Shown piece after piece: positions 2,698-61,285 of a stretch of DNA of 64,000 bases. Every line of letters begins with the position of its first letter. The stretch's first letter is position 1. The notes beneath the pieces are model-generated. The model was not told the origin of the DNA. It made no database searches and saw nothing but the letters and a program-made list of their open reading frames with translations. Source of the DNA: an uncultured bacterium (GTDB taxonomy: Bacteria; Fidelibacterota; Fidelibacteria; Fidelibacterales; Fidelibacteraceae); assembly GCA_964572745.1 (NCBI GenBank), contig CAZNFT010000001.1:86841-150840 (forward strand). Direction: 5' to 3'. Both the position numbers and the translations under genes were made by a program.

Positions 2698-3963
2698 TTA
2701 TTCAACAATATTGACCAGTGAAGAGTCGCTGAGATTGTTTTGTCCCATAACAACAACAAGGTCACCTTCTGTAAGACCGCTGAGGACTTCGTATTTTGTT
2801 TTAGATTGAATACCGATTTTAAGCTCTCTGTTTATGGCTATACCATCACGAACGATGAAGCAGGAGTAAGTCTCTACAACTTTATCTTCGCGAAGATTAG
2901 TTTCAGATCTTTCAAGAACGGTCTGCTTGTTTGTGACAGCTTTTTCTATAGTGAAAGCCTGATCTCTTTCTTGCGTAACAATATCAACACGAGCGAACAT
3001 ACCCGGCTTTAGGCGAGCATCATCATTCTTGGCAATGATCTCTATTTTAGCTGTACGGGTCATAGGATCAATAACAGGAGAGACGGTTTCAACTTTGCCT
3101 TCGAATATCTGATTGGGATAAGAGCTTAGGTGAATTTCTGTACGCTGACCAACCTTAATAAAGCCAAGATCAGATTCTGTAACATTGATATTGATCTTCA
3201 CGGTCTCAGTCTGGTGAATAGTTAAAAAAGGTTTTTGAGGGGTGCTCATATCACCAATGCGGTAAGCAAGATTAGAAACATATCCACTGATAGGTGCTGT
3301 TACACTTGCATAGGTAAGTTGTGTTTCAGCCATGGAAAGTGCTGCTTTGGCTTGTTCAAGGCCAGCTTCGGCAACTTCTTTTTGCGTGACGAGTTGGTCC
3401 CACTGAGAGTCTGAAATAGCCTTTGCTTCATAAAGTGTTTTCATGCGTTCAAATTCAACATTAACATTGGCAACCTGACTTTTTGCACTAAGATATGCGC
3501 CCTGAGCTTGTGCTTTAGAAGCACGAACGGTAGCATCATCTATTTTAGCAAGAAGCTCACCCTTTTTGACATAATCGCCGTTTTCTACATAAATATCCCA
3601 AACCGTATCGGTCAGTTTAGGATAAACTACAACAGAAGGGTCACCGGTAATATCACCAAGATATTGGACCTTTTGAGCAATATGTTCGGCTACGACTTTT
3701 TTAACAGCAACGGGTGTAATGGTCAGGTCGTCACTTTCACTTTGTTTACTGGCAGGTGCTAGTACTTTGTTTAATTTAGCAAGAAAGCGGCGGGCTTCAA
3801 CATCGCTGGGGTCAGCAGAAAATTCATTTGTAAGAGTGCGGACTTTATCCGCTGTTTTTTTGTAGTCAATATTTGTTTTGGCTTTTTCGCCGGGCGCACC
3901 GCAAGATACAAGCAGCATACCGATGATCATTAAAAATGTGATAGTTTTTAAAGAAGTTCTCAT
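2698..3963 (-). CDS. RND efflux periplasmic adaptor (membrane fusion protein, HlyD/AcrA family)
   Basis: ORF 2698..3975. Lipoprotein-type signal (MLLVSCGAP), long coiled-coil segment and beta-barrel C-terminal part typical of MFPs. ATG at 3963 is preferred (GGAG about 7 nt upstream, 1 nt after the TolC stop) over ATG at 3975. Confidence 0.85.
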   Translation of the reverse strand: MRTSLKTITFLMIIGMLLVSCGAPGEKAKTNIDYKKTADKVRTLTNEFSADPSDVEARRFLAKLNKVLAPASKQSESDDLTITPVAVKKVVAEHIAQKVQYLGDITGDPSVVVYPKLTDTVWDIYVENGDYVKKGELLAKIDDATVRASKAQAQGAYLSAKSQVANVNVEFERMKTLYEAKAISDSQWDQLVTQKEVAEAGLEQAKAALSMAETQLTYASVTAPISGYVSNLAYRIGDMSTPQKPFLTIHQTETVKININVTESDLGFIKVGQRTEIHLSSYPNQIFEGKVETVSPVIDPMTRTAKIEIIAKNDDARLKPGMFARVDIVTQERDQAFTIEKAVTNKQTVLERSETNLREDKVVETYSCFIVRDGIAINRELKIGIQSKTKYEVLSGLTEGDLVVVMGQNNLSDSSLVNIVE

Positions 3964-43190: not shown

Positions 43191-46100
43191 CTATTTCATG
43201 AGAAGCATTTTCTTTGTGATCATTTCATCTGCAGCTGATAATCGATATAAATACATACCGGAAGATAGTGTGCTTCCATTGAATGTAACCGTGTAATATC
43301 CGGCTTCTTGAAAACCATTGACAAGAGTAAGGACTTTATGACCACTGAGATCATAAATATCAAGACTTATTTTTTGGCTGAACGGGAGTTCGTAGTTAAT
43401 AGCAGTCCTAGGATTAAATGGATTTGGATAATTTTGCGAGAGGGTAAATTTCTTGGGAAGAGAAGAGGAAATACCAGTTTCACTGACCCAAATATCTACT
43501 TTATGTTGCAAGGAGTCATTTTCATTATCCTTAGCTACTAATGTAAGAGACTCGACTCCCATGTAGTTGCTACCGGGTGTTAAGACAAGAAGAGAATCCG
43601 TGATATCACAAGTAATATCGGAAGGTACATTTTTATATGAATAAGTTAAAGGGTCGCCATTGGGATCCGCAAAGATATTATTTAAATTATATGTGATGCT
43701 TTCATTCATTTTCACATCCAGAGTATCGATGTTTTCATCTATCAATACAGGGGCATCGTTTATAACAGAAATATAATTTTCCTTTACAAAAGTAGAAGAA
43801 TTAGTGCCTTTTTTTGCTACCATTGTTACAGAATATTTACCCGACTGAGTGTAGGTATGCATTAGATCTTTTCCATAATAGAATTCAGCATCGTCACCAA
43901 ATTCCCAAACATAGCTGTCTGCAGAATCCGGAGCACTTACTGTTGTGTTCATAAAACGAACAGTGAGAGGCTTGGAGCCAGTAGGATTTATAGCATAAAA
44001 TCCAGCGGCCATACCGGTATCTATAGCTGAATTAATTTCAAAATCATCAATACACCAATATTTTTCTTTTGCGCCGCGATAGCTGAATTTAAACTTCACA
44101 TCTTTAAATCCCGAAACTAAAGCGCTCATATCGATTTCTGCTAAATCAGGATTTTCGGTGGTTCCCGTCCATCTTGCTGCTTCAAACCACACTTTACCAT
44201 CGTTAATAGTATAAAGTAATCTGGCTAAAGTAATGTTTTTAACTTCCAGACGATGTTGAAATTTTACCACAACTGAGCGACTTAAACCGAAATTAAACGA
44301 TTGAGTAGTCAGTTCCGCATCAATTTGATTGACATCTCCGGCATATTCCGAATCCATAACGATGAATCCATTGTCAGCTGTTTTAGAGTTAAGACTTCTG
44401 TTTAAGGGGTTTTCTGTTCCAAAAGTACCATTGTTATATCGATCATAAACTACCCAAGCTTCTGGAATACCCTCTGAAAAATCCGTAACATAGAAAGGAG
44501 GAGAATTGGTTGAGATCTCTGCTAAATTTCTTTCTGAGTAAATGTAAGCAGAGTCGTTAAAGGAAAAGATAGCATAATTTTGTATTACACCAGCTGTCAG
44601 ACCTGTGTGGTAAAATACAGTATCTATCCCCTTATAGACAACTTCACCGCCCGCCGTAGCGTCACCAATATCGTAGCTTTGCATGCTTTGCGGAAAACCC
44701 AGTTTTGTATCTTCAGCCCAAACTATCATTACAGAATCTTTATCAGCATTTAAGCTCCAGGAAACCGTAACAGAGTCGTAACCCTGTGTAGAAATAGCAA
44801 TGTCCTGAGGACTTTCAACATAGGCATCACCGAACATAAATGTAATAACACCATTGTTTTCATAAATATTTCTCATAGGTGCCATGCTGTAATTATTCGC
44901 CCAGTCTAAGGCGTTTGGATTTGTAAAGTCTGTAAAGCTTCTATTGTTGCTTGTTCCGGGGAAAGGGTCGCCAGCATCAATTGAATAATATGAGAGGCTT
45001 CCAAAACCATCAGCTTCTTCAATATCAAAACCTTGACGATTGGGGTTATTATTTATACTATTATAATTCCAACCGGAATGATTCATATCTATATGATAGA
45101 TTAATAGGCCGTGTCCGGGTATTGCCATATCAAAGCCAGTTTGTTGACGATTTTCCATCATAAAATATTCGCCTTGGGTCTTTGCTTTGAAAAAATAAAT
45201 ATCATTGTGAGTATGTGCCGGATTTACTGTAAGGGCTTGTGTTCTTGTTAATTCTATTGGTTTTGCCCAATTAAGATGTGTTCTTGACCAAGCATTAAAA
45301 ATTGGAGGACGTCGACCACCGTCATTCCAGGAACCGCCATCCATTGCGTCCCAGTCACCTAATCCCGGTGAATTGCCACCACTACCTGCTCCATCTGTAT
45401 CATAAAAATCGGGTAACCCACAGACATGGCCAAATTCGTGACAGATTACACCAATACTTGTCAGTGTTTTCCCGGAAGTTCCATATAATTCGTTTGACGT
45501 GGAATAGTCACCAAAATATTTTCCATCAAGTTGTATATTATTCATAGAATAAGTCCACCAGCGATGTGGCCAGATGGTATTGGCATCAGCACCGGAGGCC
45601 TCGCCATAGCCGGCATAAATAAAATAAATATTATCAACGCGACCATCATTATCGAGATCGTAGTCCGAATAATCTACAAGACTATCTGCAGCAAAAATAG
45701 CATGCTTAACAAAAGTTTGAACATTTTCATCATTACCATTGGAGCCATTTTTACCATAAAATATCCAAGAGCTATCCAGGGTTACAGGACCCACGATATC
45801 GAAAGTCGGGTCAAATTTACCTAAAGAAGTTGTTTGATAATATTCATTCACAGAACCGATGGCGCCATTGTATGTATAATCTTTTGCATTGAATAGAGAA
45901 TCAAAATCTGTAGTAGAATGAGTCATTTTTTTATCCGGGAAATCTACCAAGATGCATAAGAATTTTCGTGAGCCCAGAGTAGGGAATTCAGTGCGTACGA
46001 AAGGATCATCACTGCGAGCAGAAGATCCTGAAACAGAAGCAGTCCGCATAGAATGATTTATTGGCATAGTTTTTCTTGCTGAAAGATCCACAGGCATATC

Positions 46101-46415
46101 TTGGATGTTCGGTAGTTTTTGTACGAGAATGTTTTCTTTTACAGTTCTCATTTGTGGATCATGAGCAGGGGTTCCCGAAAGAACAGCTTCACCATCTTCA
46201 TAAGCTTTTACATATTCAAATTGCCCTTGTTCGTTTCTTTTTATGTGTAAGGCGTCCTCAGTTTGGTGCCAGTGAAAATTTTCATCACCGCGCAAATAGA
46301 CTTTTAAGCTTCGGCCATCCTCATAATTGATAGTTAGAGGTTGCGGATTTGCCGGAACTGCAAACGCAAGTGCTGTAAATACTGTTATAATAAGTGTGAT
46401 AAGTATCTTTTTCAT
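43191..46415 (-). CDS. Secreted M6-family (immune inhibitor A-like) metalloprotease with PKD-like domain and T9SS C-terminal sorting domain
   Basis: ORF 43191..46514. Likely start MKKILITLIITVFTALAFA (46415). Zinc motif HEFGHVCGLPDFYD. C-terminus ...YDLSGHKVLTLVNGFQEAGYYTVTFNGSTLSSGMYLYRLSAADEMITKKMLLMK is a typical T9SS type-A CTD. Confidence 0.85.
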   Translation of the reverse strand: MKKILITLIITVFTALAFAVPANPQPLTINYEDGRSLKVYLRGDENFHWHQTEDALHIKRNEQGQFEYVKAYEDGEAVLSGTPAHDPQMRTVKENILVQKLPNIQDMPVDLSARKTMPINHSMRTASVSGSSARSDDPFVRTEFPTLGSRKFLCILVDFPDKKMTHSTTDFDSLFNAKDYTYNGAIGSVNEYYQTTSLGKFDPTFDIVGPVTLDSSWIFYGKNGSNGNDENVQTFVKHAIFAADSLVDYSDYDLDNDGRVDNIYFIYAGYGEASGADANTIWPHRWWTYSMNNIQLDGKYFGDYSTSNELYGTSGKTLTSIGVICHEFGHVCGLPDFYDTDGAGSGGNSPGLGDWDAMDGGSWNDGGRRPPIFNAWSRTHLNWAKPIELTRTQALTVNPAHTHNDIYFFKAKTQGEYFMMENRQQTGFDMAIPGHGLLIYHIDMNHSGWNYNSINNNPNRQGFDIEEADGFGSLSYYSIDAGDPFPGTSNNRSFTDFTNPNALDWANNYSMAPMRNIYENNGVITFMFGDAYVESPQDIAISTQGYDSVTVSWSLNADKDSVMIVWAEDTKLGFPQSMQSYDIGDATAGGEVVYKGIDTVFYHTGLTAGVIQNYAIFSFNDSAYIYSERNLAEISTNSPPFYVTDFSEGIPEAWVVYDRYNNGTFGTENPLNRSLNSKTADNGFIVMDSEYAGDVNQIDAELTTQSFNFGLSRSVVVKFQHRLEVKNITLARLLYTINDGKVWFEAARWTGTTENPDLAEIDMSALVSGFKDVKFKFSYRGAKEKYWCIDDFEINSAIDTGMAAGFYAINPTGSKPLTVRFMNTTVSAPDSADSYVWEFGDDAEFYYGKDLMHTYTQSGKYSVTMVAKKGTNSSTFVKENYISVINDAPVLIDENIDTLDVKMNESITYNLNNIFADPNGDPLTYSYKNVPSDITCDITDSLLVLTPGSNYMGVESLTLVAKDNENDSLQHKVDIWVSETGISSSLPKKFTLSQNYPNPFNPRTAINYELPFSQKISLDIYDLSGHKVLTLVNGFQEAGYYTVTFNGSTLSSGMYLYRLSAADEMITKKMLLMK

Positions 46416-46526
46416 TAATTTTCTCTTTTTTTGTCTGCGATTTCTTGTGCGTGATATTATAGAAAGCATTTTGAAACAATACAATATTTTAATAAATTTT
46501 TGATTGTTTAACATGAGGTGCTAAAC

Positions 46527-49771: not shown

Positions 49772-50071
49772 GCAGTGGGAATTATTGAAAAAAAATACTT
49801 AGCCATATCATATAGTAGTATAAATTTAGGCGGAGCTATTCAATGCTTTAGGAAGCCCTTTTTTTGTATTACAAGCTTTTCTCTTTTATTGCCATCAAAA
49901 CTAGTGTTTTTTGAGAATTTTATCAAAAAAAGTTCAGCTTTTTCTTGTAAATACTTGATGGAAAATAAAGCAATAAATTACACAAAATTCGCAAATTAAG
50001 GTTGGCTCTTTCTAAAAAGATTTCTAAATTCAAAAGACTTGAAAACTATACTAAACATTAGAGGTGTAAAA

Positions 50072-51238
50072 ATGATTATTGGTATTCCCAAGGAGATCAT
50101 GCCTGGAGAACGCCGCATTGCCGCGTCGCCAGAAACAGTAGAAAAAATGGTAAAGGACGGACTAAGCGTTCTTGTTGAAGTGCAAGGCGGAGAGGGTTCT
50201 TTTTATCATGACCCCGAATATGTAGCCGCTGGAGCTGAACTTGTTGATGATGTTAGTGATATTTATGAACGCTCTGACGTTATCTTAAAAGTAAAAGAAC
50301 CCCTTTTCAATAAAGAAAAGAACAAGCATGAAGTTGATATGATGAAAGAAGGCCAGACCCTTATTACTTTTATCCACCCTGCTGCACCGATCAATCACGA
50401 TATGGTGAAACGACTTGCGGCTAAAGGCGTTACAAGTCTTACACTTGATGGTATTCCGCGTATCACACGAGCACAGACCATGGATGCACTAACTTCTATG
50501 AGTACTTGTGCAGGATACAAAGGTATGTTAATTGCTGTCAATGAATTACCACATTTTGCTCCACAGATTTTTACCGCAGTTGGAATGATCAAACCTATCA
50601 ATGTTTTGGTTGTGGGTGTTGGTGTTGCCGGTCTTCAGTCCATTGCAACAGCTAAACGTCTTGGTGCTGTTGTTTATGCTGCCGATATTCGTCCGGCCGC
50701 TGCAGAACAGGCAATGTCACTTGGCTGTAAGATCATCGACTTGGAAGTTCCTGCTAACGAGGCCGTTGGTGAAGGTGGTTATGCACTTGCTTTATCAGAA
50801 GATCGTCTTAAAAAAGAACGTAAGATTCTTGCAGAACATGTTAAAGATATGGACATTATTATTTTATCTGCCCTTGTACCCGGTAAATTAGCTCCCAATA
50901 TTATCACCGAAGAAATGGTAAAGAGTATGAAAAACGGTGCGGCTATTGTTGATATTTCCATTGACCAAGGTGGTAACTGCGAGATCACTCCTCCAGGTGT
51001 TATTGAAACGAAACATCATGTTACATTGATCGGTATTAAAAATATCCCCGGACTTCTTCCTACAAGTTCAACCTGGATGTTCTCACAGAATGTTTACAAT
51101 CTTCTGGAATACCTCGTCAAGGATGGAGAGATCCATCTTGATCTGGATGATCCTATTATTCAGAGCTCTTTGACAACCTATAAAGGTGAAGTCGTTCACC
51201 AAGGTGCATTGGAAGCATTCGCCGCACTTGGGCATTAA
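50072..51238 (+). CDS. pntAA: NAD(P) transhydrogenase subunit alpha part 1 (dI, NAD(H)-binding)
   Basis: ORF 50039..51238. ATG at 50072 follows GAGGTG and gives MIIGIPKEIMPGERR. Rossmann VLVVGVGVAGLQ. Confidence 0.9.
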   Translation: MIIGIPKEIMPGERRIAASPETVEKMVKDGLSVLVEVQGGEGSFYHDPEYVAAGAELVDDVSDIYERSDVILKVKEPLFNKEKNKHEVDMMKEGQTLITFIHPAAPINHDMVKRLAAKGVTSLTLDGIPRITRAQTMDALTSMSTCAGYKGMLIAVNELPHFAPQIFTAVGMIKPINVLVVGVGVAGLQSIATAKRLGAVVYAADIRPAAAEQAMSLGCKIIDLEVPANEAVGEGGYALALSEDRLKKERKILAEHVKDMDIIILSALVPGKLAPNIITEEMVKSMKNGAAIVDISIDQGGNCEITPPGVIETKHHVTLIGIKNIPGLLPTSSTWMFSQNVYNLLEYLVKDGEIHLDLDDPIIQSSLTTYKGEVVHQGALEAFAALGH

Positions 51239-51254
51239 TAAACGCCTTATAATT

Positions 51255-51284
51255 TACCGCACCCTTCAAGGTGCGGTATTTTTC
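51255..51284 (+). terminator. Strong intrinsic-terminator-like hairpin between pntAA and pntAB
   Basis: TACCGCACC-cttcaa-GGTGCGGTA (perfect 9 bp) followed by TTTTT. Confidence 0.65.
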
Positions 51285-51325: not shown

Positions 51326-51631
51326 ATGACAACAACACAGGGCATTTTAGTCGCCGTTTTCATTGTGGCTACCCTGGTCGGTTATAAGATCATCAACCGC
51401 GTACCAAGTCTTTTACACACACCGCTAATGTCGGGCATGAACGCTTTTTCTGGCGTTACCGTTCTCGGTTGTCTTTCTGCAACTGCAATAGCAGTACATT
51501 TAGGCAGTCAGGTTCTTGGTTTTATTGCCATCGTTATTGCGATGATCAATGTGGTGGGTGGTTTTGGAGTTACCGATCGCATGCTTCGCATGTTTCACGG
51601 AAGTAAACCAAAAGAGGAGGGTAAAAAATAA
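51326..51631 (+). CDS. pntAB: NAD(P) transhydrogenase subunit alpha part 2 (membrane, dII)
   Basis: 101 aa with three TM helices. LHTPLMSGMNAFSG motif. Confidence 0.9.
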   Translation: MTTTQGILVAVFIVATLVGYKIINRVPSLLHTPLMSGMNAFSGVTVLGCLSATAIAVHLGSQVLGFIAIVIAMINVVGGFGVTDRMLRMFHGSKPKEEGKK

Positions 51632-53679
51632 TGTTATTAACTAATTTATTAAACTCTTCTCTATTACCGCTTAATATGCTTGGTGAACAGGCGTCCAGTA
51701 CTCAAAATATTATCTATTATATTGCATCGGCTATCCTTGTGATCGCTGTGCTTATTGGTCTTTCCAAGATGAGTAATGTTAAAACTGCGGTTAAGGGTAA
51801 TGTTATAGGTTCTGTAAGTATGCTTCTTGCCATTGTTTTGACGCTATGGCATTTCAATATTTTTAATGTTGTGCTACTTTGGATCGCTATGCTTGTTGGA
51901 TTGCTCATTGGTATTTATGTTGCCATGAAAGTTAAAATGATCCAGATGCCTCAATTGGTGGGTCTTTTGAATGGTTTTGGTGGTGGTGCTTCAATGCTTG
52001 CGGGTATTTTGACTTTAATTGCTGTAACACCCGATATGACAACTTTTTCGGTTTTAACTGCGAGTCTGGCAATTTTTGTTGGTAGTCTCACTTTGAGCGG
52101 TAGTCTTGTAGCAGCAGGTAAACTCCATAAAGTTCTTCCTCAGAAACCCATTGTATTAAAAGGACATATGTTTTGGACAGTCCTAACACTTGTTTTATCT
52201 TTAGTCACTGTTATTCTTTTTGTGATTCTTCCTGTTTTTGCAGATCCGACCCTTATGATAACACTGATCCTGCTTTGTCTCTTTTTTGCAGCTAGCTTTG
52301 GTGTGATTTTTTCCATTCGTATTGGTGGAGCAGATATGCCGATTACCATTTCGCTGCTCAATTCACTTTCCGGTGTTGCGGGCGCCATTGCCGGTATGGC
52401 AATTGCTGATCCATTGCTTGTTGCTGTTGGTGGTATTGTAGGTGCGTCCGGTTTATTTTTAACACAGATCATGTGCAAGGCGATGAATCGCAAACTCTTT
52501 GAAATCCTGCTTGGTAAAACATCAGTTGCCGGTAAAAAAGCAAAGCCAAAGGAAATAGCTGAAGTTAAAAAGAAAGCTGAGCCTGTTAAAAGTGAAAAAG
52601 TACTTTCTCCCGGGAAGCGTTGCGGTAAATGGCTTAAAGATGCAAAACGTGTTATTATTGTGCCAGGTTACGGTATGGCACTTTCGCAAGCGCAATCAGC
52701 AGTTAAGCAGCTATTGACTGAACTTGAGCATGAAGGCAAAGAAGTAAAATTCGCTATCCATCCGGTTGCCGGTCGTATGCCTGGCCATATGAATGTGCTT
52801 CTTGCTGAAGTTGATGTTCCCTATGATAAATTGTACGAAATGCAGGATATCGACCCTGAATTCAAAGATACTGACGTTGCTATCGTTATTGGTGCAAATG
52901 ATGTTGTTAATCCTGCGGCGAATACGGCTGAAGGTACACCCATTTATGGTATGCCTATTCTTAATGTAGATGAGGCAAAACATGTTATTATGTGTAATTT
53001 CGATAAGCTTCCCGGCTATGCAGGTGTGGATAATCCGCTTTACGACGAAGGCTGCGAAGATCATATTGCTTTGATGTTGGGAGATGCTAAAGAAACACTG
53101 AAAGCCATTATGATTGATTTCCGCGATAGTGATACACCTAAAAAAGCTGAGGGTACTGCTACTGAGTACGCCGGTCAATGGCTAAATGATGCTAAACGCG
53201 TGATCATTGTTCCGGGTTATGGTATGGCGCTGTCTCAGGCACAGTCAATTGTTAAAACTCTGATGCTGGAACTCGAGACAGATGGAGCGGAAGTAAAATT
53301 CGCCATTCATCCGGTTGCCGGTCGTATGCCTGGCCATATGAATGTGCTTCTTGCTGAAGTTGATGTTCCCTATGATAAACTTTACGAGATGCAGGAAATT
53401 AATCCGGAATTTAAAGATACAGATGTTGCCATTGTTATTGGTGCAAATGATGTTGTTAATCCAGCAGCAAATACGGCTGAAGGTACACCCATTTATGGTA
53501 TGCCTATTCTCAATGTAGAAGAGGCAAAACATGTTATTATTTGTAACTTTGATAAACAGCCCGGTTATGCCGGTGTTGATAATCCGCTCTACGAGGATGG
53601 ACGGGAAGATCATATTGCACTTTTGCTAGGTGATGCAAAAGAGACATTGAGAATGCTGACCCGTACTTTCCGTGTCTAA
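51631..53679 (+). CDS. pntB: NAD(P) transhydrogenase subunit beta with two tandem dIII (NADP(H)-binding) domains
   Basis: 682 aa. Polytopic dII part (about residues 1-300), Lys-rich linker, then the dIII sequence twice (GYGMA...HPVAGRMPGHMNVLLAE...GANDVVNPAA in both copies). Confidence 0.9.
   Translation: MLLTNLLNSSLLPLNMLGEQASSTQNIIYYIASAILVIAVLIGLSKMSNVKTAVKGNVIGSVSMLLAIVLTLWHFNIFNVVLLWIAMLVGLLIGIYVAMKVKMIQMPQLVGLLNGFGGGASMLAGILTLIAVTPDMTTFSVLTASLAIFVGSLTLSGSLVAAGKLHKVLPQKPIVLKGHMFWTVLTLVLSLVTVILFVILPVFADPTLMITLILLCLFFAASFGVIFSIRIGGADMPITISLLNSLSGVAGAIAGMAIADPLLVAVGGIVGASGLFLTQIMCKAMNRKLFEILLGKTSVAGKKAKPKEIAEVKKKAEPVKSEKVLSPGKRCGKWLKDAKRVIIVPGYGMALSQAQSAVKQLLTELEHEGKEVKFAIHPVAGRMPGHMNVLLAEVDVPYDKLYEMQDIDPEFKDTDVAIVIGANDVVNPAANTAEGTPIYGMPILNVDEAKHVIMCNFDKLPGYAGVDNPLYDEGCEDHIALMLGDAKETLKAIMIDFRDSDTPKKAEGTATEYAGQWLNDAKRVIIVPGYGMALSQAQSIVKTLMLELETDGAEVKFAIHPVAGRMPGHMNVLLAEVDVPYDKLYEMQEINPEFKDTDVAIVIGANDVVNPAANTAEGTPIYGMPILNVEEAKHVIICNFDKQPGYAGVDNPLYEDGREDHIALLLGDAKETLRMLTRTFRV
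52630..53676 (+). repeat. In-frame tandem duplication inside pntB (period 549 nt)
   Basis: The TGG codon of WL(K/N)DAKRVIIVPGYGMA is at 52630 and again at 53179. 142 of 165 aligned residues are identical by manual count, and many nucleotide differences are synonymous. Confidence 0.95.
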
Positions 53680-53707: not shown

Positions 53708-53738
53708 AGAGGCTGTTCTTGGGAATAGCCTCTTTTTG
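53708..53738 (+). terminator. Rho-independent terminator after pntB
   Basis: AGAGGCT-12 nt loop-AGCCTCT followed by TTTTT. Confidence 0.7.
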
Positions 53739-56477: not shown

Positions 56478-57716
56478 ATGAGAAAAATCATACTGAGAAA
56501 TCGCGCTTTGATCAAAACTGTATCATGGCGAATTATAGCATCATTCTTAACAATTGCTATTGTTTATGCTGTTACCAGAGATATTCTAGCTGCTGTTTCC
56601 GTTATGTCTGCTGAATTCTTTACAAAAATGGCTCTTTATTGGGGACATGAAAAGGGTTGGGGCTTTATTAATATGCCGGAGAAAGGCAGCAAACTCCGTT
56701 CTTTTATTAAAACTATAACATGGCGCGTTGTGGCATCGGTTACAACTTTTAGTCTTGTTTATGCTTTTGACAAAAAACCTGATCCGACTGATGTTGCAGT
56801 ACTCTCGGCTACTTATACAGTATTATTTGAAAATATTTTAAAACCACTGACTTTTTATTTTCATGAACGCCTTTGGAACATTAATTTCAATCTCGATATG
56901 ACCATCGATTTGCATACACATAGTACTTGTTCAGATGGCAGTGCTTCTCCCCAAGAAATTATTCAACTGGCAATAGATAAAGGGTGCGAATATATATCTA
57001 TTACTGATCATGACAATATTGATCATCTTTCGCATGTGGGAGAAATTCCTGATATTATTAAATTTATTCCAGGTGTTGAGATTTCTGCAGAGCATAAAAA
57101 GACCTTGCATATTCTTGGCTATGGTTTTGATCCTGAAAACAAAGAATTGAAAGAGACTTTGAAGTCTTTAGTGGAAGCGCGAAGAGAACGCAATGTATTA
57201 ATGCTTAAAAAAATGGCTGAGCAGGGTTTTCATATTACGATGGATGAATTAGCGAAGGAATCTAAGGGTGGAATTGTCGGTCGCCCGCATTTTGCAAATT
57301 TAATGCTTCAAAAAGGCTATGTTGAAAATTATCAGGAAGCTTTTGATAAATATTTAGCTAAGGGTCAATCACTTTATATGGATAAATTCCGTCTTGATCC
57401 CAAGGTCGCTATTGAATTAATTCTGGCTGCCGGTGGCATTCCTGTCATGGCGCATCCATATCAGACCGGCTTATCATCCCCCGAGTTAGAAGGTCTGATC
57501 AAAGAATTAAGATCCTATGGTTTAATAGGCATTGAAGTCTATTATTCGCAACATTCTAAAGAACAAATGAAAGAATATCTGGGCTATGCCAAGAAATACG
57601 ATCTCTTGCCGACAGCCGGATCGGATTTTCATGGTAGTTTTAAGCCGGACATAGAACTTGGTATGACTATGCCTCATGTAGAGGTCATGCCTTTTTTGGA
57701 GCTTTTAGAAAAATGA
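56478..57716 (+). CDS. Membrane-anchored PHP-family phosphoesterase (2x DUF2061 N-terminal repeats + TrpH/YciV-like PHP domain; putative 3',5'-bisphosphate nucleotidase)
   Basis: 412 aa. Two repeats of K(T)(V/I)(S/T)WR..AS..T and (G)HE(K/R).W (DUF2061 pattern), then [12 protein letters not shown]...[11 protein letters not shown] metal motifs. 4-nt overlap with cysC. Confidence 0.75.
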
Positions 57717-58318
57717 GATCCTCGAATGTAAAATGGCAAGAAGGCTTTATCGGTCAGAAAGAACGGGAAGCTTTATTAAAACAAAAAGGTGTTTGCCTGT
57801 GGTTTACCGGACTTTCGGGCTCGGGTAAAAGTACAGTAGCCTCTGCTGTTGAAAAAAAAATATACGAGATGGGATATTTATCATATATACTTGATGGAGA
57901 CAATATTCGTCATGGCTTGAATGGCGATCTAGGATTTTCGGATGAAGACAGGAAGGAAAATATCCGTCGTATTGGTGAATTGAGTAAATTATTTACTGAT
58001 GCGGGGCTCATTACGCTCACAGCTTTCATTTCGCCTTTCAGGGCAGATAGGGAAAGAGTGAGAAATATTCTTGAAAAAGGTAAATTTATTGAAGTCTTCG
58101 TCGATTGTCCTTTGGAAGTCTGCGAAAACCGCGATGTTAAGGGTTTATATGCTAAGGCAAGAAACAACGAGATCAAGGCATTTACCGGGATAACATCGCC
58201 CTACGAAGCACCCGAAAAGCCGGAGATCATTATTAATACGGCAGAAGAGACTATAGAAGGATCGGCAGAGATCATTATAAACTATTTAATAAATCACAAC
58301 ATTATAGAGAAAAAATGA
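57713..58318 (+). CDS. cysC: Adenylyl-sulfate (APS) kinase
   Basis: 201 aa with all canonical blocks: [64 protein letters not shown]. Confidence 0.95.
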
Positions 58319-59229
58319 CAAAAGAAAATTATTCGCTTTCGCACTTGCAAGAACTTGAAGCCGAGGCTATTCATATTATTCGTGAAGTAGCGGCAGAATT
58401 TGAAAATCCCGTGATGCTATATTCAATTGGTAAAGATTCTTCCTGCATGGTACGTCTTGCCGAAAAGGCATTTTATCCGGGGAAAGTTCCCTTTCCTTTA
58501 ATGCACATTGATTCAAAATGGAAATTTAAGGAAATGGTGGAATTTCGCGATCATTATGCTAAAGAAAAGGGCTGGGACCTTATTGTCCATTATAATAAGG
58601 AAGCTTACGAAGCAGGCATTGGTCCATTTACTCATGGATCTAAGGTTCATACAGATGTAATGAAAACAGAGGCGCTTCTTGAGGGATTAAATAAGTATGG
58701 TTTTGATGCTGCTTTTGGTGGCGCTCGTCGTGATGAAGAAAAATCCCGGGCAAAAGAACGTATATTTTCTTTCCGCGATGAATTTCATCAGTGGGATCCC
58801 AAGAATCAGCGACCTGAACTTTGGGCAAATTATAATACTCAGGTTATGAAGGGTGAATCCATTCGTGTATTCCCAATTTCAAACTGGACGGAATTGGATG
58901 TCTGGCAATATATTCGTCTTGAAAAAATCCCTATTGTTCCATTGTATTTTGCAAAACCGCGAGCGGTAGTCGAATATAATGGTGCTTTAGTTTTGGTGGA
59001 TGATGAGCGCATGCCCAAAGAACTGCGCGATAAAGCCAAAATGAAAATGGTTCGCTTCAGAACCTTAGGTTGCTATCCCTTAACCGGCGCTGTTGAGTCC
59101 GATGCTGATACAATTGAGAAGATCGTAGAAGAAATGATGACCACCACAGCATCTGAAAGAACGACTCGCGTAATCGACTTTGACCAGGAAGGGAGTATGG
59201 AACAGAAGAAAAGAGAAGGGTACTTCTAA
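58315..59229 (+). CDS. cysD: Sulfate adenylyltransferase subunit 2
   Basis: 304 aa. PAPS-reductase-fold N-terminus ([11 protein letters not shown]) and C-terminal ...[14 protein letters not shown] typical of CysD. Confidence 0.95.
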
Positions 59230-59383
59230 AAGAAAAAGTACAAAGTATAAAGGCAAAAGTACAAAAAATAGGCAAGAATAAAGCAAGATGTAAAGACGCA
59301 ATTTAACGCGTCTCTAAAAATATAAAGAGAGCTGAATACTGAACGCTACATGCTGACAGCTGACAGCCGATAGTAAGGACACT

Positions 59384-61285
59384 ATGGAACAGACAAAACA
59401 AGCATTGAATATAGAGGAATTTCTCGCGCAGGATGAGAAAAAGGATCTTTTAAGAATATTGACAGCCGGTTCAGTTGATGATGGAAAATCGACTTTGATC
59501 GGTCGTTTGTTATTTGATTCAAAAAGATTATATGATGATCAGTTAGTTGCATTAAAGCGCGATAGTAAGCGCGTGGGACATGCCGGAGAGAATATAGATT
59601 ATGCTCTGTTGCTAGATGGCTTAAAAGCTGAACGCGAACAAGGTATTACTATTGATGTAGCTTATCGCTATTTTTCAACTAATCGTCGTAAATTTATTAT
59701 TGCCGATACACCCGGACATGAACAATACACACGAAATATGGTTACTGGCGCATCAACTGCCAGTCTTGCTCTTATTCTTGTAGATGCCTCAAAGGGCGTT
59801 ATCACTCAAACAAGACGACACACATTTTTAGTTTCTCTTTTAGGTATAAAACATGTTGTTCTGGCTGTAAATAAAATGGATCTGGTTGACTACGATAAGG
59901 AAGTATTTGATAAAATTTGTGAGGATTATAAAAGATTTTTGATCCGCCAAAATATTCCTGATGTCAATTTCGTTCCTTTGTCAGCTCTTCATGGTGATAA
60001 TGTTGTGAATCTTTCGGATAAAATGCCGTGGTACAAAGGTCAGCCTATTTTAGAATTATTAGAGAGCATTCATATAAGTTCGGACAGGAATTTTACAGAT
60101 CTACGTTATCCTGTGCAGTATGTTTTGCGCCCTGAACACAGTTTTCGCGGATTTTCTGCAAAAGTTGCGTCAGGTATTGTTCGCAAGGGCGACGAACTCA
60201 TGGCGTTACCATCACGGAAGAAAAGTAAAGTTAAAGAGATTATTACTTATGATGGAGAACAAAATTACGCTTTTCCACCGGAAAGTGTCACGATCACTCT
60301 AGAAGATGAGATCGATATTTCGCGTGGTGATATGTTGGTACATCCAAATAATCAGCCAAGAGTCGAAAGGCATTTTGAGTCTATGTTGGTATGGATGGAT
60401 GAAAAAGATATGGATCTCAACACGAACTTTATTATTAAGCAAACCACTAATTTAACTAAGGCAAGAATTGATGATATTCGCTATAAGATCAATGTCAATA
60501 CCATGCATCGTAGCGAAGCCAATCATCTTAAATTAAACGAGATCGGTCGTGTTGTTATTACTGCCAGTAAAGCCTTATTTTTTGATGCCTATGAGAAAAA
60601 TCGAGAAACGGGTTCCTTTATTTTGATCGATCCTATCACGCATAATACTTCTGCTGTCGGTATGATCATTGATCGTGTATCTGCGGAAGATCTTCCAAAC
60701 AGGATCTCTGATAAAGATCGTAAGAAGATCTCTGAGGGTATAAGCTTAGTTTCATCAAAAGAAAGAGAAGCTAAATTACATCAAAAAGGGCAAACGATAT
60801 GGATTACCGGTTTACACGGCAGTGGAAAAACCGATCTTGCATATTTGCTTGAAAAGCGTCTCTTTGATCTTGGTCATGTCAGTATTTTATTGGATGGCCA
60901 TAATGTGCGTTCCGGTCTGTCTAAAGAATTGGATTATTCCCCCGCAGATCGCGCAGAGCATTTGCGTAGAGCCGCTGAGGTTTGTCGTTTATTGAATGAC
61001 CAAGGGATTATCACTATTTGCACTTTTATTTCGCCTAAAGAAAAAACACGCCAGCAGATAGCAGAGATCATTGGTAAAGAAAGATTTACGCTTATTCATA
61101 TGGCAAGTGATCTTGAAACAAGCAGGGCCAATAAGCCGGAATTATATAAACTTGCCGAGGAGGGGAAACTGCATAATTTAGCAGGAATGAACTCAGTCTA
61201 TGAAGTGCCCGAAAACCCAGATCTTAGATTAGAAATGGATGATAATCGGATAGAAGGTATTGTGGAAATTATTCAAAACAAGTAG
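59384..61285 (+). CDS. cysN: Sulfate adenylyltransferase subunit 1 (GTPase) fused to a divergent APS-kinase-like domain
   Basis: 633 aa. G1 [16 protein letters not shown]3 DTPGHEQY, G4 NKMD. C-terminal about 175 aa is APS-kinase-like ([33 protein letters not shown]). Confidence 0.9.

Follow-up and report, generated by a model that had tools for sequence, protein, structure and literature searches.

We analysed a stretch of 64,000 nucleotides (nt) from contig CAZNFT010000001.1 (assembly GCA_964572745.1, positions 86,841 to 150,840), referred to here as the window, which carries the genes of a membrane-bound transhydrogenase. The genes pntAA, pntAB and pntB form the operon of a three-subunit transhydrogenase of the PntAB type, in which the NAD(H)-binding domain (dI), the alpha2 membrane subunit and the beta subunit are separate proteins. 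The beta subunit, PntB, is composed of a membrane domain (dII) followed by two copies of dIII, the domain that binds NADP(H) in characterised enzymes. The features of the operon are listed below (aa, amino acids; ORF, open reading frame; pLDDT, predicted local distance difference test score).

50039..51238 (+): pntAA, free-standing NAD(H)-binding dI; ORF of 399 aa from TTG 50039
51255..51278 (+): terminator-like hairpin with T-run between the dI gene and the membrane-subunit genes; 9-bp stem with 6 GC pairs, followed by TTTTT
51326..51631 (+): pntAB, alpha2 membrane subunit, 101 aa; Pfam PNTB_4TM, 105 bits
51631..53679 (+): pntB, beta subunit, 682 aa, dII and two dIII; from the ORF, the repeat, Pfam and Foldseek
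51631..52524 (+): dII membrane domain, aa 1–298; AlphaFold2 helices up to residue 293
52525..52605 (+): dII–dIII linker, aa 299–325, VAGKKAKPKEIAEVKKKAEPVKSEKVL; pLDDT below 50
52606..53130 (+): dIII copy 1, aa 326–500; the repeat unit as given in a preliminary description begins at 52630
52759..52830 (+): 72-nt tract encoding HPVAGRMPGHMNVLLAEVDVPYDK, identical to 53308–53379 in copy 2; probable gene conversion
52996..53004 (+): loop E motif N456-F457-D458 of copy 1, opposite E. coli K424-R425-S426; from ungapped HMMER alignments to solved dIII
53131..53154 (+): inter-dIII linker, aa 501–508, DTPKKAEG; pLDDT below 50
53155..53676 (+): dIII copy 2, aa 509–682; secondary-structure pattern as in copy 1
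53545..53553 (+): loop E motif N639-F640-D641 of copy 2
53708..53733 (+): terminator-like hairpin with T-run at the end of the pnt operon

PntAA matches the Pfam families AlaDh_PNT_N and AlaDh_PNT_C, and its matches to the NCBIfam PntA models lie under their cut-offs. In the corresponding NCBI protein, which comes from a metagenome-assembled genome (MAG), the gene starts at ATG 50072, giving 388 aa. The translation of pntAB contains the histidine of the motif LLHTPLMSG, the putative proton-channel histidine (corresponding to His42-alpha2 of T. thermophilus). The stop codon of pntAB overlaps the start codon of pntB (ATGA). PntB matches Pfam PF02233 in two stretches with 795.5 bits, against a cut-off of 31.7, but scores only 554.9 bits with the NCBI equivalog model for the beta subunit of Re/Si-specific NAD(P)+ transhydrogenase (NF006974), which is below the cut-off of 689 despite the contribution of two dIII domains. 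The enzyme is predicted to catalyse NADH + NADP+ -> NAD+ + NADPH, coupled to proton translocation. Two antisense ORFs of 155 and 122 aa (52711–53178 and 53245–53613, both on the minus strand) mirror each other because each is located across from one of the dIII copies, and are a by-product of the repeat and not genes.

The preliminary description, which was made from the sequence alone, had reported both the 682-aa reading frame and a direct repeat within it, and recomputation agreed exactly with both. The two segments start in frame at 52630 and 53179, a start-to-start spacing of 549 nt, and are identical at 142 of 165 residues and at 401 of 495 nt (81%). The 94 differences are distributed over codon positions 1, 2 and 3 as 17, 11 and 66. 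The Nei–Gojobori method gives 0.89 synonymous (dS) and 0.10 nonsynonymous (dN) substitutions per site, and hence a dN/dS of 0.11. This comparison, which the preliminary description had proposed, indicates purifying selection, and implies that the dN/dS of either copy on its own is at most about 0.22. Tandem Repeats Finder reported no repeat in this region because the period of 549 nt exceeds the longest that it can detect (500).

The window is from a MAG-like source, where a chimeric or falsely duplicated segment might be suspected. The copies differ, however, at almost a fifth of their positions, and assemblers tend to collapse repeats rather than to create diverged in-frame ones. The same two-copy gene, with 1 nt different, is found on three contigs of three other samples (two ENA assemblies and one JGI metagenome), within the same gene neighbourhood as in the window, and the 90% cluster of the window protein includes an NCBI MAG protein that also has two dIII copies. 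In addition, homologues from named species have four copies on megabase contigs. An assembly artefact is therefore effectively refuted, as the preliminary description had anticipated.

Synonymous differences are unevenly distributed along the repeat, and the 72-nt tract at 52759–52830 is perfectly identical to its counterpart in copy 2; a run of this kind was obtained in 0 of 100,000 permutations. Gene conversion is therefore the probable cause of this local homogeneity. The two copies are thus old, yet have probably exchanged sequence in this way. We note that an identical tract of this type is the kind of region in which short-read assemblies collapse a repeat. The 90% cluster of the window protein also contains a 499-aa protein with a single dIII (P0242), from a JGI contig of 4.6 kb, which is a hybrid comprising the N-terminal half of copy 1 and the C-terminal half of copy 2. 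It represents either a short-read collapse of the repeat or a real deletion variant arising from unequal crossing-over.

The evidence supports the view that each dIII module is complete and folds, that purifying selection acts on both, and that neither is in decay. The signature blocks GYGMA, HPVAGRMPGHMNVLLAE and GANDVVNPAA, noted in the preliminary description, are indeed present in both copies. All of the nucleotide-site residues that were checked are identical in the two copies, and G314, Y315, H345, A348, R350, D392, N395 and Y431 (E. coli numbering, which is used for residue comparisons throughout) are present in each. Relative-rate tests with seven outgroups showed no asymmetry between the copies, and the invariant residues of copy 1 coincide with those of copy 2 when 23 two-copy proteins are aligned. 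The AlphaFold2 model of PntB has a mean pLDDT of 72.8 and gives both dIII domains the same Rossmann-like secondary-structure pattern; only the two linkers, residues 299–325 and 501–508, are disordered. The best Foldseek matches to this model are the transhydrogenases of E. coli (9L76), T. thermophilus (4O9U) and sheep (6S59 and 6QTI), and isolated dIII structures match it with a template modelling (TM) score of about 0.8. The sequence identity of the window dIII is 56% to the solved dIII of T. thermophilus and 49–51% to that of R. rubrum. All characterised transhydrogenases have one dIII per beta subunit or protomer; PntB of the window has two complete ones, and therefore more dIII per dII than any of them.

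The closest known systems are the three-subunit enzymes of T. thermophilus and R. rubrum (PntAA/alpha1, PntAB/alpha2 and PntB/beta; structures 4O9U, 4J16 and 1PNO), which have the same gene order and the same division into subunits as the window. They share with it an Asn at the position of E. coli beta H91, the equivalents of D213, R265 and N222 in dII, and G314, Y315, H345, R350, D392, N395 and Y431 in dIII. They differ in having one dIII rather than two, KR[S/G] rather than N-F-D in loop E, and Ser rather than Thr at position 404 of loop D; in addition, the dII–dIII linker of the window protein exceeds theirs in length and has a high content of Ala, Lys, Pro and Glu. The two-subunit E. coli enzyme (9L76) is the best structural match to the whole PntB model and has homologous dII and dIII domains. 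Unlike in the window, its dI is fused to the first membrane helices, its channel histidine is beta-H91, its dIII is single and its KRS motif is intact. In the dII of the window protein, S158, D235, N244 and R287 (E. coli S139, D213, N222 and R265), at positions with an implicated role in coupling and proton translocation, are conserved, and Asn occupies the H91 position in all 76 three-subunit loci compared.

The signature blocks are intact, as the preliminary description had stated in calling both domains NADP(H)-binding, but that description needs to be qualified in one respect. In E. coli PntB, the residues K424-R425-S426 of loop E form a ‘KRS’ motif in the NADP(H) site. We take this motif to contact the 2'-phosphate. 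In ungapped alignments to solved dIII domains, K-R-[S/G] of T. thermophilus and R. rubrum lies opposite N-F-D in the window, and both copies read N-F-D. Essentially all dIII copies of the multi-copy proteins show this pattern in the form N-[Y/F/L]-D, as do some 100 relatives with a single copy and loci L001–L042. By comparison, KR[S/G] is present in all 36 canonical loci compared, and in all of loci L043–L080, which are mostly from Proteobacteria, Deinococcales and cyanobacteria. K424N, S426D and S404T separate the N-x-D (NxD) group from the canonical group at 100% versus 97–100%, and the position of R425 is Y, F or L in the former. In a tree based on dII only, the NxD group forms one clade in 50 of 50 bootstraps. 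Since N-x-D is present throughout this clade, it is a conserved change and not decay; loss of NADP(H)-contacting residues from one copy followed by neutral evolution, which the preliminary description had allowed for, is not what we find.

The remaining residues of the nucleotide site and the coupling residues of the membrane domain are conserved in both the NxD and the canonical groups, and the dIII residues for nicotinamide and pyrophosphate are invariant across the NxD clade. No conserved basic residue that might replace the lost charges was found near N-x-D in the clade alignments. A compensating change of specificity in dI was also considered and rejected, since the Asp of the dI Rossmann fold (VYAADIR), which is of the NAD(H) type, is invariant in both clades. 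Fused enzymes of the protozoan type were examined as a proxy for specificity, but none of those recovered lies inside the NxD clade: the fused forms, which include enzymes of the animal type, have one dIII, read KR[S/G/T] and are 32–38% identical to the query, and are therefore uninformative on the specificity of NxD domains. The Entamoeba enzyme reportedly binds NADP(H). From the sequence, the NxD dIII is a putative NADP(H)-binding domain, and its nucleotide specificity and affinity are considered further below.

PntB proteins with two to five tandem dIII domains are a widespread group, found mainly in anaerobes. Among the best 120 matches of the first protein search, 59 have three dIII, 56 have four and 4 have five; the remaining one is the window protein itself. 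Two-copy proteins are present in many GTDB species. Multi-dIII proteins come from named species of genera with cultured members, among them Porphyromonas cangingivalis, P. uenonis, P. bennonis, Dysgonomonas massiliensis, Desulfovibrio intestinalis and Alkalicella caledoniensis, with some of these genes on megabase contigs, and from many MAGs of Clostridia, Bacteroidales and Anaerolineaceae. Every dIII copy in more than 150 proteins retains all the functional residues. A search with dII only missed close multi-dIII relatives that were found later; its candidate pre-filter is evidently not exhaustive, and the search was not used for prevalence. The exhaustive scan was made on 50%-identity cluster representatives, among which multi-copy proteins number 15 of 54 in the NxD group and 1 of 80 in the KR group (p = 3.5e-6), and the single KR case is a 306-aa fragment with a partial duplication. 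All the complete multi-dIII proteins seen thus belong to the NxD clade of three-subunit enzymes. In part of this clade alpha2 and beta form a single chain with alpha2 at its N-terminus, and the resulting three-dIII proteins reach lengths of about 1020 aa (loci L012, L015, L016, L021, L038 and L070; proteins P0406, P0413, P0432 and P0461).

In public databases these proteins are annotated merely as ‘subunit beta’. Full-text literature searches found no paper on multi-dIII or NxD-type transhydrogenases, nor any characterised NxD member. The preliminary description had said that no account of this architecture was known, and to that extent it stands; the uniqueness that it implied does not, because the homologue scan that it proposed shows the arrangement to be common in databases.

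The arrays expand, contract and become homogenised while every copy stays intact, as judged from the sequences. In distant lineages the dIII copies cluster by protein. The closest relatives of the window protein are three-copy proteins, 73–75% identical to it, from MAGs of Clostridiaceae, Saccharofermentanales and Mageeibacillus, and here the copies cluster partly by position. Copy 2 of the window groups weakly with third copies, and the orthology of the window copies to the first and last copies of these relatives is weakly supported (bootstrap 31–42). The Desulfovibrio intestinalis cluster contains 1013-aa four-copy proteins together with two separate 830-aa three-copy sequences (NCBI and ENA), both of which terminate at an identical position in the linker. 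The cores of first, middle and last copies do not differ systematically (mean total-variation distance 0.07–0.10), which argues against positional specialisation. We note that the names given to identical neighbouring proteins assign the window organism to Candidatus Neomarinimicrobiota, and that a protease encoded nearby has a sorting domain for type IX secretion, yet the MAGs of the nearest PntB relatives (loci L001 and L002) carry labels from other phyla. This kinship suggests either transfer of the pnt operon between phyla or mislabelled bins.

The dI protein is free-standing in all 78 related loci that have a dI gene inside the fetched stretch. The hairpin after pntAA in the window has a folding energy of –16.1 kcal/mol, and comparable hairpins follow the dI gene in several related loci: 9 of 43 NxD loci have a terminator-like hairpin immediately behind the dI gene, compared with none of the 36 canonical loci (p = 0.003). 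Besides the window, hairpins are seen at L001, L002, L005, L013, L021, L025 and L028, and the stem sequences of the window, L001 and L002 are almost identical. The hairpin could lead to the production of more dI than beta subunit. An analysis of conserved neighbours in 42 loci found only a regulator of the Lrp/AsnC type (9 loci) and a generic ABC transporter family (9 loci), and no informative metabolic partner. The Lrp/AsnC-type regulator is directly upstream of pntAA in these 9 loci (for example at 3200–3865 in L009) and is absent from the window; its presence is a hint that the operon may respond to amino acids in certain lineages.

In known enzymes, dIII alternates by a swivelling motion between two orientations, facing down on dII and facing up under dI; the isolated domain binds NADP(H) with sub-nanomolar affinity, the dI dimer, (dI)2, forms a tight complex with one dIII (Kd below 60 nM), and the linker between dII and dIII is 14–19 residues long (PMC5742237). 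In three-subunit enzymes (dI)2 must always stay on one dIII, and the single-chain transhydrogenases of protozoa (domain order dIIb-dIII-dI-dIIa) illustrate how plastic the order and connection of domains have been in the evolution of this family (PMC13635403). The dII–dIII linkers of the NxD clade are longer than the canonical ones and rich in Ala, Lys, Pro and Glu, with about 27 disordered residues between dII and copy 1 in the AlphaFold2 model of the window protein. Between the copies there are about 8 disordered residues in this model, compared with a family-wide median of about 12 residues, rich in A, E, P, T and S.

The preliminary description had proposed that a double dIII has a mechanistic consequence, and judging from the sequences this is plausible. 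Our preferred interpretation, to which we would give a probability of roughly 55%, is that tandem dIII domains act as swinging carriers in increased dosage: the copies would be interchangeable, with none specialised, and their number would keep both (dI)2 and the proton channel occupied. As in known transhydrogenases, each dIII would load or unload nucleotide while face-down on dII, in a step coupled to the proton channel, and would then swivel up to the dI dimer for hydride transfer. In three-subunit enzymes, a bound dIII is all that keeps the dI dimer at the membrane. While one copy was held by, and reacting with, (dI)2, another could dock on dII, so that both stations would remain occupied and the soluble dI dimer would remain captured. 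The analogy is with the one to three tandem lipoyl domains in the E2 component of 2-oxoacid dehydrogenases and with the tandem acyl carrier protein (ACP) domains of polyunsaturated fatty acid synthases. As in the window clade, these are mobile carriers on flexible linkers rich in Ala and Pro, whose copy number depends on the species and whose copies are near-identical and apparently interchangeable. The likeness is functional only: there is no homology, and the lipoyl and ACP arrays carry a covalent prosthetic group, whereas dIII would carry a dinucleotide bound non-covalently.

Several considerations weigh against this interpretation. The mechanism would be an extrapolation from this analogy and from enzymes with a single dIII. 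The inter-dIII linker is short (about 8–12 residues), and may restrict independent docking of neighbouring copies. Members of the clade with a single dIII also have a free dI, and tethering of dI can therefore not by itself explain the multiplicity. Copy number varies between close relatives (the 499-aa hybrid, and the 830- and 1013-aa Desulfovibrio proteins), so that the exact number may be only weakly selected. Finally, with the KRS motif lost, the tight, occluded binding of NADP(H) in canonical enzymes, which lies behind the carrier picture, may not hold.

One alternative is a division of labour between the copies. The proximal dIII would run the proton-coupled cycle on dII, while the distal dIII, intact but not turning over, would be a permanent anchor or platform for (dI)2 or for a second dimer. 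The need of (dI)2 to stay on a dIII in three-subunit enzymes (PMC13635403) and its tight binding to a single dIII (PMC5742237) are both in keeping with such an anchor, and the short inter-dIII linker means that the distal copy may not reach dII. The enrichment of post-dI hairpins in the NxD loci could likewise mean an excess of dI to match the extra dIII. Yet no position-specific residues separate first, middle and last copies, and every copy retains its full set of catalytic and nucleotide-site residues, whereas a pure anchor should have relaxed at least those residues that contact dII. Arrays of three to five copies also exceed the apparent need for anchoring, and we regard the anchor as rather unlikely. 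It is less likely still, and indeed very improbable, that copy number simply drifts in a near-neutral manner, with unequal crossing-over enlarging and shrinking the array and extra copies tolerated without adding anything. Such drift would fit the single-copy hybrid in the window's 90% cluster, the coexistence of three- and four-copy forms in one Desulfovibrio cluster, the clustering of copies by protein in distant lineages, and the 72-nt identical tract, which suggests that recombination between copies is ongoing. The hybrid, however, is on a contig of 4.6 kb and may be a collapsed repeat, and a dS of about 0.9 implies that the window copies have long coexisted under a dN/dS of 0.11. Moreover, no copy in the more than 150 proteins has lost its functional residues, and multi-copy proteins have been kept across several phyla, although no complete example was encountered among the canonical enzymes; this points to a functional context.

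A further alternative concerns the N-x-D motif. The NxD dIII could have an altered affinity or specificity, either binding NADP(H) far more weakly or binding a ligand without a 2'-phosphate. In that case the enzyme would depart from the classical NADH:NADP+ transhydrogenase with its tight coupling, and the arrays would have arisen as an adaptation to its altered chemistry or kinetics. The replacements K424N and S426D discriminate between the clades (100% versus 100% and 97%, respectively), and together with Y, F or L in place of R425 they amount to the loss of two positive charges, the gain of an invariant Asp and an aromatic residue at the position of the Arg, with no conserved basic residue nearby as replacement. 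Loss of charge, gain of Asp and an aromatic residue are the pattern associated with switches of preference from NADP to NAD. The low score with the NCBIfam equivalog (554.9 bits versus 689) and the occurrence of complete multi-dIII forms in the NxD clade only point the same way. Against this, all the nicotinamide and pyrophosphate contacts are conserved, and the NAD(H)-type Asp of dI is retained in both clades. If dIII also bound NAD(H), there would be no net reaction to couple to protons, and NADP(H) is thus the only obvious second substrate; we therefore consider a changed specificity of this kind unlikely. A broader and more speculative version, which is doubtful but which we rate somewhat higher, is that the NxD clade has a dIII of fundamentally different affinity or specificity, and that arrays of two to five dIII evolved only there, in a mode other than the alternating-site mechanism with occluded NADP(H). 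The domains might, for example, be fast-exchanging hydride carriers serving several dI dimers, or might use a ligand other than NADP(H).

Elsewhere in the window, a gene at 43191–46514 (–) encodes a 1107-aa secreted peptidase of the M6 family (immune inhibitor A-like), with PKD and Big_9 domains and a C-terminal Por_Secre_tail sorting signal for the type IX secretion system (T9SS). A sulfate-activation cluster at 57713–61285 (+) has two adenosine 5'-phosphosulfate (APS) kinase domains. It consists of a stand-alone APS kinase (57713–58318), a PAPS_reduct/CysD-like protein (58315–59229) and a CysN/CysC-like protein (59384–61285), the last being a GTPase with EF-Tu-like domains fused to an APS kinase.

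A central question about transhydrogenases is how dIII travels from the proton channel to dI and back, and whether the two protomers have to alternate in antiphase. Enzymes with two to five dIII per protomer and a free dI are a natural test of how many carriers a channel can use, of whether antiphase is obligatory, and of how (dI)2 is retained. The architecture is easily overlooked, since the dIII repeat is prone to collapse in short-read assemblies and the generic annotation name hides it. With the KRS motif lost, the ‘NAD(P) transhydrogenase’ of many anaerobes from the gut, the mouth and digesters, among them Porphyromonas, Bacteroidales and Clostridia, may differ in behaviour from the E. 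coli enzyme. If the NxD enzymes do behave differently, metabolic models of NADPH supply in these anaerobes would be affected.

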